A model generated the notes under the pieces. The model was not told the DNA's origin, made no database searches, and saw only the letters and a list, made by a program, of their open reading frames with translations. Of a DNA stretch of 64,000 bases, positions 33,666 to 35,652 are shown one piece after another (position 1 is the stretch's first letter; each line of letters begins with the position of its first letter). Origin of the DNA: a virus (Duplodnaviria; Caudoviricetes); IMG/VR virus record IMGVR_UViG_3300042507_004106; one strand, 5' to 3'. The translations under genes were made by a program, and so were the position numbers.

Positions 33666-34316
33666 TTAGATAACCCATTCTGCTTCACCACCAAGTGCTT
33701 CATAACAAATAGGGAACTGTTCAGCAAAAACTGCTTTACACGCCTTTGCAATATCCATATGCTCTCGCTGAGTTCCTGACTTTTCGCGGAGAGCAATATA
33801 GGTTATCCATGACCTGCAAGAGCCACTCATATAGATACGTGTGGGCGTCGCTAAGGGCAATACAAACCTTGCACACTCCTTTGCTACCCCCGCCTCTAGA
33901 AGACGCTTGTAGAGGGCGTTAGCGGCGGCAAAATGCTCAGAGATTTCTCCCTGGAGTTTCAGTTTGACGTAATCGGGAATATCATCAATTGAGTTCTGAC
34001 GATTCTTAGTATCTTGACGACGAAGATCTGGAATGGGAATGTATTCAGTCAGAAGATTTGTATCGGCATAGCGTTGCGAAAATTCTTGATATGTAAAGCT
34101 CCTATGACGAAGAATTTGTGCCGCAATACCACGGTTTGTTTCAATCTCAAGAGTCATAAATGCCTGCTCAAATACAGACCAATGATTATGCTTGATGCAA
34201 TAACGAAGCAACCCCGCATAGTTTTCATTATCTTGGTTACTAGGATTAGAGACTCTAGCAACATACGCCATTGTCTTTTCTGCATCGGGAGTAACACTAA
34301 TGAGTTTTACAGTCAT
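33666..34316 (-). CDS. thyX: Flavin-dependent thymidylate synthase ThyX
   Basis: HWSVFE, RGIAAQILRHRSFTYQEFSQRY, ECARFVLP motifs. Confidence 0.96.
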   Translation of the reverse strand: MTVKLISVTPDAEKTMAYVARVSNPSNQDNENYAGLLRYCIKHNHWSVFEQAFMTLEIETNRGIAAQILRHRSFTYQEFSQRYADTNLLTEYIPIPDLRRQDTKNRQNSIDDIPDYVKLKLQGEISEHFAAANALYKRLLEAGVAKECARFVLPLATPTRIYMSGSCRSWITYIALREKSGTQREHMDIAKACKAVFAEQFPICYEALGGEAEWVI

Positions 34317-34486
34317 TTTTTTCCAAATCCTTTTGATGTTTGTGCTTCTAGTTCTTTTATTTGCTCCTTTACCGCACGGAGTTGTGCCTTCATTTCTTGA
34401 ATTTTATCATCATTATAAAGATGATCTTGCTTGATCAGTCTCTCAAGAAGTTTTACAAGTTTCTTTGCTCTTGATGTATCAGTCAT
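34313..34486 (-). CDS. Small coiled-coil hypothetical protein (57 aa)
   Basis: MTDTSRAKKLVKLLERLIKQDHLY...; ATGA coupling to thyX. Confidence 0.65.
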   Translation of the reverse strand: MTDTSRAKKLVKLLERLIKQDHLYNDDKIQEMKAQLRAVKEQIKELEAQTSKGFGKK

Positions 34487-34652
34487 CTAAATCCGAATCC
34501 TCAAAAATTTCATCGTAATCTAAAAGTGGTCTTTTTCTCACATCTGGTTCTGTATGTTTGTAAGCAGAAATATCAGAATAAACTTCTGCTTTCAGAGAAT
34601 CAACCAATAGTTCAAGATTACGAACGATGAGTTTTAGTTTGTCTTTGTCCAT
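34479..34652 (-). CDS. Small hypothetical protein (MDKDKLKLIVRNLELLVDSLKAEVYSD, 57 aa)
   Basis: Read manually; TG-n-TAAAAT box upstream. Confidence 0.7.
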   Translation of the reverse strand: MDKDKLKLIVRNLELLVDSLKAEVYSDISAYKHTEPDVRKRPLLDYDEIFEDSDLDD

Positions 34653-34683
34653 AAGATACCATTCTCTCTCAGGATTTTAGCAT

Positions 34684-34712
34684 AAAAAAAGGAGGGGATC
34701 AACCCTCCTTTT
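34684..34712 (-). terminator. Rho-independent terminator closing the peptide operon
   Basis: AAGGAGGG/CCCTCCTT stem followed by a U-tract. Confidence 0.75.
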
Positions 34713-34715
34713 GAT

Positions 34716-34799
34716 TTACTTATAAATCCACTGGATATACAGTGATAATAAAGTAATAAAAGTAGCAGACGCAACTGTAATTTGTGCGATGATTAACAT
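34716..34799 (-). CDS. 27-aa hydrophobic single-TM peptide
   Basis: MLIIAQITVASATFITLLSLYIQWIYK; TGATG coupling. Confidence 0.55.
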   Translation of the reverse strand: MLIIAQITVASATFITLLSLYIQWIYK

Positions 34800-34894
34800 C
34801 ACTTTGCCCCTGCGTTTACAAGCAGTGCTTGATGACGACGATTCTCTTTCTGCTTTTGCTCTTTGATGAGTTGAAGCACATTGAGTTTTTTCAT
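34799..34894 (-). CDS. 31-aa basic peptide, possibly a GS inactivating factor (IF7)-like core
   Basis: MKKLNVLQLIKEQKQKENRRHQALLVNAGAK; TGATG coupling; GGAGG upstream. Confidence 0.55.
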   Translation of the reverse strand: MKKLNVLQLIKEQKQKENRRHQALLVNAGAK

Positions 34895-35031
34895 CACTTA
34901 TGACCCTCCTTTACAAACTTAACACCACGATAGGTTTCGTTGTATTGTTGGGGTTGTTGCATCATTTGCTGTTGATACTCAAGACGCTTTTGAGTATCAT
35001 ACTCTACGCCTCTGTATACGACTTTAGACAT
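34894..35031 (-). CDS. 45-aa DUF4278-like peptide with two YRGV motifs, Gln-rich
   Basis: MSKVVYRGVEYDTQKRLEYQQQMMQQPQQYNETYRGVKFVKEGHK; AAGGAG RBS. Confidence 0.8.
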   Translation of the reverse strand: MSKVVYRGVEYDTQKRLEYQQQMMQQPQQYNETYRGVKFVKEGHK

Positions 35032-35063
35032 TAGGTTTTCTCCTTAGTTTTTTAAGTTAAAGA

Positions 35064-35163
35064 GCGTTCCTTCAGTCGGCGTTTGCGTTCGCTATTTGCG
35101 AATAGCGAATGAACGATCCGTTCCGCGTCGGCTTACTTCCGTCAGAGTTTTCTCTGATGAACG
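35064..35163 (-). ncRNA. Glutamine riboswitch (glnA/Downstream-peptide family), tandem or nested aptamer
   Basis: Two CGTTCAT-hairpin-...GCCGAC...GGAACG units; glnA E-loop strands GGAAGTAAG and CTGAAG present; lies 5' of a YRGV peptide. Confidence 0.8.
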
Positions 35164-35170
35164 TAAGGTC

Positions 35171-35199
35171 ATTATAGACCTTTTCAAGGTATATATCAA
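35171..35199 (-). promoter_or_regulatory. Sigma70-type promoter TTGATA-N17-TATAAT; predicted start just before the riboswitch
   Basis: Predicted +1 near 35164, one nucleotide before the first CGTTC. Confidence 0.7.
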
Positions 35200-35200
35200 T

Positions 35201-35230
35201 ATAAAATTGTATAATCTGTTACAATTTTAT
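35201..35230. promoter_or_regulatory. NtcA binding site (TGTA-N8-TACA) within an 11-bp perfect inverted repeat
   Basis: ATAAAATTGTA-TAATCTGT-TACAATTTTAT. Confidence 0.75.
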
Positions 35231-35245
35231 AAAATCTTAAGAGTC

Positions 35246-35277
35246 AAAAAAATTGCCGGGATTTTTTCCCAGCAATT
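35246..35277 (-). terminator. Rho-independent terminator upstream of the NtcA/riboswitch unit
   Basis: AATTGCTGGGA/TCCCGGCAATT stem followed by a U-tract. Confidence 0.75.
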
Positions 35278-35283
35278 TGTAAA

Positions 35284-35652
35284 CTATTTTCTCTTTTTCT
35301 TTTCGGGAGATTTATAACCCCAGAGTTTTGGATTGACTCTCCCATAACCAAAGTCAATACTCTTTAGATTCCCACGAAACTTATCCCAATACATATCAAA
35401 CAGTTTGATTCTTCCGCCACGAGTAAGGTCAAAACAAATCTTATCATCAATCATATACTTAATAATATAGGCATCATTGGGTGCATCTTTCGTGCAGACT
35501 TCAGCATAGGTCCCACCTTCAATCAGAATCTCACAACCGTAGCGTGACTTACAAGTTTCCTTTTCTGCGGGTGTCCAAGAATCCATATGCTTTTCTTTAT
35601 TTTGTGCTTTTTCAATTACATCACCAAGTTGACTCACGAACGACCTCCCCAC
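35284..35652 (-). CDS. Conserved cyanomyophage hypothetical protein (start uncertain)
   Basis: ORF track; alternative starts at GTG ~35637 or ATG 35586. Confidence 0.7.
   Translation of the reverse strand: MGRSFVSQLGDVIEKAQNKEKHMDSWTPAEKETCKSRYGCEILIEGGTYAEVCTKDAPNDAYIIKYMIDDKICFDLTRGGRIKLFDMYWDKFRGNLKSIDFGYGRVNPKLWGYKSPEKKKRK

Follow-up and report, generated by a model that had tools for sequence, protein, structure and literature searches.

Three coupled micropeptides behind tandem putative glutamine-I aptamers in a freshwater cyanophage: a probable split and permuted copy of a picocyanobacterial helix-plus-YRG protein

The DNA analysed here is a viral stretch of 64,000 nt (the window) which belongs to a freshwater cyanophage and appears to encode a small protein of host origin as two coupled peptides, accompanied by a third, putative membrane peptide. 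The minus strand carries a compact unit in which an NtcA-type box and a promoter precede a pair of putative glutamine-I aptamers; three micro-ORFs of 45, 31 and 27 aa, coupled by TGATG overlaps, follow, and a terminator closes the unit. The features of the unit, preceded by the gene upstream of it, are as follows.

35652-35284, minus strand: upstream gene, which ends at 35284, before a terminator-like hairpin.
35250-35278, minus strand: terminator-like hairpin (12-bp stem, then a T run) that closes the upstream gene and forms the 5' border of the unit.
35209-35222, minus strand: NtcA-type box, a perfect GTA-N8-TAC within the longer palindrome TTGTA-N8-TACAA.
35171-35199, minus strand: sigma-70-type promoter, TTGATA-17-TATAAT (11/12 match).
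35119-35163, minus strand: putative Glutamine-I (glnA RNA) aptamer 1 (RF01739, 21.4 bits, E 0.056, below the gathering score).
35061-35117, minus strand: putative Glutamine-I aptamer 2 (RF01739, 33.1 bits, E 3.3e-5, against a gathering score of 35).
35040-35064, minus strand: hairpin that pairs the Shine-Dalgarno sequence, CUCUUUA (35064-35058) with UAAGGAG (35046-35040), a putative expression platform.
34894-35031, minus strand: peptide 1, 45 aa, DUF4278-like, with two YRGV motifs and a Gln-rich linker.
34799-34894, minus strand: peptide 2, 31 aa from ATG (32 aa from the GTG at 34897), a basic helix with a net charge of +7.
34716-34799, minus strand: peptide 3, 27 aa from ATG, hydrophobic, with one predicted membrane helix.
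34687-34712, minus strand: intrinsic terminator (10-bp stem, then a T run) that closes the unit.

Much of this layout had been given in a preliminary description of the locus. The terminators said to bound the unit were recovered as hairpins at 35278-35250 and 34712-34687, and our scan of this 1.1 kb returned four terminator-like hairpins where 0.6 were expected. The two TGATG-coupled peptides behind a glutamine riboswitch and an NtcA box lie, feature by feature, where they had been placed, and the translation of peptide 1 agrees with the reported two YRGV motifs and eight Gln in 45 aa. The start codon of peptide 2 (ATG at 34894) overlaps the TGA stop of peptide 1 by one base, the A, giving TGATG, and the last codons of peptide 1 (AAGGAGG, 34911-34905) serve as the Shine-Dalgarno sequence of peptide 2, 10 nt before its start; the product contains KQKENRRHQALLV. 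A second TGATG couples peptide 2 to peptide 3, which had not been listed previously and has a mean hydropathy of 1.42. It is present in ∼30 of 76 related loci, where its amino acids vary conservatively and at least three sequence types occur; S-SRM01, S-PM2 and the phages with a fused form (see below) lack it. For a measure of selection we fetched 80 related loci and, for each ORF, took those that were usable. Peptide 1 had an in-frame pN/pS (Nei-Gojobori) of 0.04, peptide 2 one of 0.25 and peptide 3 values of 0.21-0.34, compared with 0.7-6.6 in the other two frames. Thus, all three are under purifying selection and are not chance ORFs.

The DNA of the window is present in many lake-water metagenomes. 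None of its cultured relatives is close, the nearest being S-SRM01, with 79 % identity over 37 % of 8 kb. Related cassettes were found in DSL-LC02, S-SRM01, S-PM2 and S-CREM1, and those of the T4-like cyanophages S-PM2 (p190/p191), S-SRM01 (QPX47983/QPX47984) and S-CREM1 (gp206) are orthologous to the one described here, annotated as hypothetical proteins and located in the same neighbourhood as in the window, upstream of small conserved genes and thyX. In the window, two conserved genes of 57 aa each (34313-34652, minus strand) lie between the cassette and thyX (33666-34316); the first product, which starts MDKDKLKLIVRNLELL, has an acidic tail, the second is coiled-coil-like, and the pair, for which we obtained no family match, accompanies the cassette in S-SRM01, S-PM2 and many IMG/VR contigs. 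Metatranscriptome contigs from four studies cover 34809-35180 (the leader, peptide 1 and most of peptide 2) with 90-100 % likeness; as these contigs derive from relatives, may include carried-over DNA and do not give transcript ends, we take them as a weak hint that the cassette is expressed. In one metatranscriptome run, short contigs over the aptamers (35059-35139) had a word depth of up to ∼720, compared with ∼20 over the peptide genes; stable leader fragments could accumulate there, and contig depths cannot be used to rank regions.

The leader of the unit consists of two adjacent putative Glutamine-I aptamers, each of which falls under the Rfam gathering score in the window. Homologous leaders in relatives score 31-54 bits against RF01739 (gathering score 35), and the position of aptamer 1 is conserved among them. 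Aptamer 2 has a variant core, ACGCAA instead of ACGGAAG. A search of 34600-35400 with RF01704 (Glutamine-II) gave no match at E-values up to 10, the region containing two RF01739 matches instead. The leader fold has a z-score of -2.8, and in both the minimum-free-energy and the centroid fold the Shine-Dalgarno sequence of peptide 1 is sequestered in a hairpin with the 3' tail of aptamer 2; in relatives this pairing arm is kept, with a different sequence. In many relatives the 5' strand (CGTTCAT) and the 3' strand (GACGCAA...GAAGGAACG) of the second aptamer lie ∼160 nt apart and enclose a conserved ORF of 50-51 codons, which starts MEALILTCLQAQL and ends KECKIDAKVD (L001:1530-1700, from DSL-LC02; L017:1308-1460; L020:1307-1459; L039:1305-1460; L002:1371-1538), whereas the window has a short hairpin at that place and no 50-codon ORF.

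Upstream of the aptamers, 43 of 60 distinct related regions retain GTA and TAC, with variation in the 8 nt between them. The phage box occurs at two spacings. In tandem leaders, the window's among them, 58-59 nt that include a complete -35/-10 promoter separate it from aptamer 1; in single-aptamer leaders it lies 38 nt before the aptamer, with its centre at about -30.5, which is the geometry of the NtcA-repressed gif promoters (PMC6316151). If transcription starts at A35164, one base before aptamer 1, as seems probable, the box of the window is centred at about -50.5/-51.5. Relative to this putative start, a centre near -51 fits neither the canonical activating position of -41.5 nor the repressing gif positions of -30.5 and -7.5 (PMC6316151). 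The preliminary description had proposed host-like control by a glutamine riboswitch and an NtcA box, and as a layout this is borne out, since phage and host boxes alike are conserved at fixed spacings before their aptamers and the host genes described below share the order of box, riboswitch and peptide. For the window, we infer both the sign of NtcA action (activation or repression) and the ON logic of the riboswitch.

Peptide 1 of the window matches DUF4278 (PF14105) at 19.1 bits (E 0.0017; gathering score 25.3 bits). Across its family, PF14105 was the sole family matched, by 23 of 23 members and with a best E-value of 1.2e-4, all below the cut-off; the DUF4278-like character ascribed to it earlier therefore holds for the whole family at a sub-threshold level. 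This type of peptide is widespread, with 272 protein clusters and >413 IMG/VR contigs. A search of NCBIfam gave no family for any of the peptides.

Further insight into the relationship of peptides 1 and 2 came from other phages, in which the two modules are joined. S-CREM1 has, behind an annotated glnA riboswitch, a single ORF of 48 aa that combines one YRG motif with a peptide 2-like helix, whereas the window has the split form; fused proteins of this type make up 24 clusters. A 71-aa YRG-YRG-helix fusion occupies the same thyX-linked position in other phages, and forms with the order helix-YRG-YRG were found on low-GC, phage-like contigs behind a glnA-type aptamer. Because related phages encode fused forms, and in both orders, we regard peptides 1 and 2 as two halves of one protein. 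AlphaFold2 modelled the fused 48-aa form as one long helix (pLDDT 82.6) and a 59-aa host form, introduced below, as a helix at residues 3-28 with a low-confidence tail (pLDDT 63.5); in neither was there confident packing of two modules, only the helix. Complex prediction for peptides 1 and 2 scored 0.00, a result that speaks neither for nor against binding. Peptide 2 of the window is not described here as amphipathic, as its amphipathicity was not above that of shuffled sequences.

Using a profile of phage fused and peptide 2 sequences, we searched 1.84 billion representative proteins and obtained 48 significant matches, arranged as YRG-helix, YRG-YRG-helix, helix-YRG-YRG or a tandem duplicate. 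Among them were two cellular-looking, host-type proteins, P0272 (E 1.7e-7) and P0305 (E 3e-4). The contig of P0305 has 62 % GC, and a Glutamine-II riboswitch (57.6 bits) stands directly before the true start of the gene. P0272 (127 aa, from a JGI metagenome contig of 2 kb) reads helix-YRG-helix-YRG-YRG and is thus a tandem duplication; a duplicate of this kind could be an intermediate, in that trimming both ends could give the permutation with YRG first and helix second. Three stand-alone short matches (P0284, P0301 and P0304) were considered as host genes and rejected, each being a phage peptide 2 gene behind a peptide 1 gene. A scan of genome contigs with the phage motif returned only one phage-like contig, binned in an Acidimicrobiaceae MAG, a genome in which PF14105 had no match.

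A metagenome scan seeded with P0272 and P0305 gave 20 loci with GC contents of 51-72 %, on contigs of up to 439 kb. Nineteen of the 20 have RF01704, at 45-62 bits and ending ∼17 nt before the ATG, and in 15 of the 19 upstream regions checked for a box, the GC-rich ones (61-72 % GC), TGTA-N8-TAC lies 31 nt before the aptamer. The encoded proteins have 57-60 aa, a helix of 26 residues followed by two YRG motifs, and pass the Pfam DUF4278 cut-off at 27 bits. Their assignment to cyanobacteria rests on RF01704, GC content, contig size and the taxa of the Atlas cluster, NCBIfam annotation of the genes flanking two of the loci having left the taxon unsettled. They are the 'IF17-like' DUF4278 proteins of Klahn et al., which are without the glutamine-synthetase-binding (IF7-like) part of IF17 (PMC6212724), and the conserved short ORFs of the Downstream-peptide motif of Weinberg et al. 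(PMC2864571). An example from this Glutamine-II (Downstream-peptide, RF01704) group is the PMM1846/Yfr6 ORF of Prochlorococcus MED4 (PMC2864571; PMC6212724). In the literature consulted, no function is assigned to the host 'IF17-like' family, and the phage papers mention the riboswitch and do not discuss the peptides behind it.

When the phage peptide 2 family was compared with these host proteins by hhalign, the probability was 96.6 % (E 6.6e-10) over 27 columns, corresponding to host residues 1-27; 30 column shuffles gave at most 1.6 % and reversed sequences 0.2 %. The clade of the window's own peptide 2, taken alone, gave 66 % (E 5.5e-5). Moreover, an HMM built from host proteins only and run on the six-frame fragments of the window ranked the frame of peptide 1 first (E 0.003) and that of peptide 2 second (E 0.011). 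Pairwise BLASTP of the window's peptide 2 against a host protein found nothing, and the link between the two therefore needs profiles or intermediate phage variants. The helix motif (MN-x-L-x-L-I-R ... K ... L-x-x-A-Q) is present in peptide 2, and two YRG motifs ∼20-25 residues apart are present in peptide 1, at residues 6-8 and 34-36 (28-30 and 52-54 in the host proteins). In the window they are divided between two cistrons, the one for the YRG motifs preceding that for the helix, and do not form one helix-first polypeptide. On this profile evidence, peptide 2 is a homologue of the N-terminal helix of the small picocyanobacterial proteins. Taken with the two-YRG layout and riboswitch of the host genes, this homology leads us to regard the cassette as a split and permuted phage copy.

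The phage and host systems share the helix motif (N, L, I, K, L and A-Q at equal spacing), the YRG repeats, an upstream NtcA box and a predicted glutamine riboswitch immediately before the coding sequence. They differ in that the phage version has two cistrons in permuted order (YRG first, helix second), tandem Glutamine-I aptamers where the host has one Glutamine-II aptamer, an NtcA box upstream of a complete -35/-10 promoter, and an added membrane micropeptide. A second known system for comparison is gifB (IF17) of Synechocystis sp. PCC 6803, whose promoter is NtcA-repressed and followed by a type 1 glutamine riboswitch, and whose product joins a DUF4278 N-terminus to an IF7-like core. The predicted riboswitch class (RF01739), a DUF4278-like YRG peptide, an NtcA box and the presumed glutamine-ON logic are common to both; the phage unit, however, is without the IF7-like core, its second module being an unrelated helix, and it has tandem aptamers and a box centred near -51.

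The best explanation of these data is that the unit is a phage copy of the picocyanobacterial glutamine-riboswitch protein (a helix and two YRG motifs) that has been split and circularly permuted. We consider this probable because of the host homology, the fused and permuted relatives, the purifying selection on all three ORFs, and the conserved NtcA box and aptamers. Under such a scheme peptide 1 would supply the two YRG motifs and peptide 2 the helix, the latter being made by termination-reinitiation at the TGATG overlap, with peptide 3 coupled likewise. By analogy with gifB and the leaders of Prochlorococcus MED4 (PMC6212724), glutamine binding would free the Shine-Dalgarno sequence of peptide 1 from its hairpin with the 3' tail of the aptamer. 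High glutamine in the host would then switch on synthesis of the peptides, and NtcA, responding to 2-oxoglutarate, would, again by analogy, modulate the promoter. In the weakest step of the scheme, the peptides would bind a protein of host nitrogen assimilation.

Glutamine synthetase is the best single guess as this target, a tentative one well short of an even chance, and a different nitrogen-regulatory target is about as likely, because IF17 acts on the enzyme through a part that is missing here. Were the enzyme the target, the module that binds it would have no relation to IF7. The alternative leaves the identity of the unit as it is and replaces the enzyme with PII, PipX, NtcA, a transporter (together with peptide 3) or another high-glutamine process, and we hold it to be about as likely as glutamine synthetase. 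It draws on the host family, which is without the glutamine-synthetase-binding part of IF17 (PMC6212724); on IF17 itself, whose DUF4278 part is dispensable for inhibition and mainly stabilizes the protein (PMC6316151); on the conservation of a coupled membrane micropeptide in the ∼30 of 76 loci noted above; and on PirA, another small cyanobacterial regulator, which acts on PII (PMC8092223). Weighing on the other side, IF17, the sole characterized riboswitch-controlled DUF4278 protein, does act on glutamine synthetase. A bolder proposal, which we think unlikely, is that the helix-plus-YRG peptides of hosts and phages fill the place of the glutamine synthetase inactivating factors that are missing from marine and freshwater picocyanobacteria, operating through an IF7-unrelated helix, with the phage shutting down host glutamine synthesis at high glutamine. 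If this is true, ATP and glutamate would be saved, and 2-oxoglutarate and NtcA-driven phage transcription would be kept up.

The micro-ORFs might also be cis-acting leader peptides, with no function of the peptides themselves, that tune the downstream genes (the two 57-aa genes and thyX). They are very short, tightly coupled and upstream of thyX in several phages, and the conserved peptide sequence may, as Weinberg et al. suggested, be regulatory (PMC2864571). This is nevertheless very improbable, as a strong terminator follows peptide 3, the amino acids are conserved despite many synonymous changes, and the same residues recur in host homologues and fused phage forms whose genomic contexts differ.

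The preliminary description had offered another identity, in which peptide 2 is the glutamine-synthetase-binding core of IF7/IF17 and peptides 1 and 2 together are a split IF17; this reading, the least credible of all, is already contradicted at the level of sequence. Points in its favour are the basic character of peptide 2 (net charge +7; family mean pI 10.5), its position, as in gifB (PMC6212724), beside a DUF4278-like peptide that a glutamine riboswitch and an NtcA box precede, and a short local likeness between K-E-N-R-R-H-Q-A-L-L and K-N-R-Q-Q-S-M-L. For the comparison with the IF7-type core of GifA and GifB, a Synechocystis IF7 sequence was used only as a search seed; it retrieved 559 database proteins, the best of them 94 % identical to the seed, and UniRef names one IF7. 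In hhalign against 35 real IF7 sequences, the peptide 2 family reached a probability of 0.05 % and the fused family one of 0.15 %; the window's own peptide 2 clade reached 0.86 %, over 9 columns. The host helix scored just 0.07 % against IF7. Neither peptide 1 nor peptide 2 was found by an IF7 HMM run on the six-frame fragments of the window, and BLASTP returned nothing. A PDB sequence search with peptide 2 had no match at E-values up to 10, and one with the IF7 seed found no deposited IF7 chain.

Residue conservation leads to the same conclusion. In the IF7 alignment M11, R13, H14, H15, K19, R21, Q22, Q23, S24, L26, R28, E32 and W42 are invariant and the C-terminal half is conserved. Binding of glutamine synthetase by IF7 needs R8, R21 and R28 (PMC6316151), of which the first is nearly invariant and the other two are invariant in the alignment. 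The invariant or near-invariant residues of peptide 2 are N5, K11, K16, E17 and A23, with no Arg conserved, so that the three essential arginines are without a counterpart; nor are there conserved counterparts of R13, Q22, Q23, S24 and L26. The residues on which the likeness was built (N-R-R-H-Q-A-L-L) vary among orthologues (N/Q/E/D, R/K/L, R/K/L/Q, H/Y/Q/K and Q/K/E), and the C-terminal half of IF7 (W42, QGKP, YDRS) is absent. Peptide 2 as an IF7 mimic was therefore rejected, on the IF7 profiles, on this variation, and on the better-supported homology to the host N-terminal helix. What stands of the suggestion that the phage carries IF17 as two peptides is the splitting of one protein, to which the fused forms attest, and not the identity of that protein with the IF7/IF17 core.

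New here are the homology to the host helix and the rejection of the IF7 link, which does away with an attractive but mistaken annotation as a phage IF7 mimic. Glutamine-riboswitch-controlled DUF4278 peptides are present in many copies in Prochlorococcus and Synechococcus and respond strongly to nitrogen status. To these proteins our analysis adds a second conserved module, the predicted N-terminal helix, and both modules are kept by abundant T4-like cyanophages, which tolerate them split, fused or permuted. These arrangements amount to a natural dissection of the protein, with peptides short enough to be synthesized and with cultured systems at hand (S-PM2 and S-CREM1).

One further observation concerns the junction of the first two genes. 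Across 41 loci (L054-L133, alignments A7 and A8) peptide 1 is ∼98 % (96-100 %) identical, and behind this near-invariant peptide we found three types of peptide 2 (MKKLNVLQLIK..., MNTYFVRYLK... and MNWLNVIR...), with L086 an apparent hybrid of types. A pattern of this kind points to exchange of peptide 2 through recombination at the gene junction, and the combination of a near-identical peptide 1 with three types of peptide 2 argues against a tightly co-evolving interface between the two.
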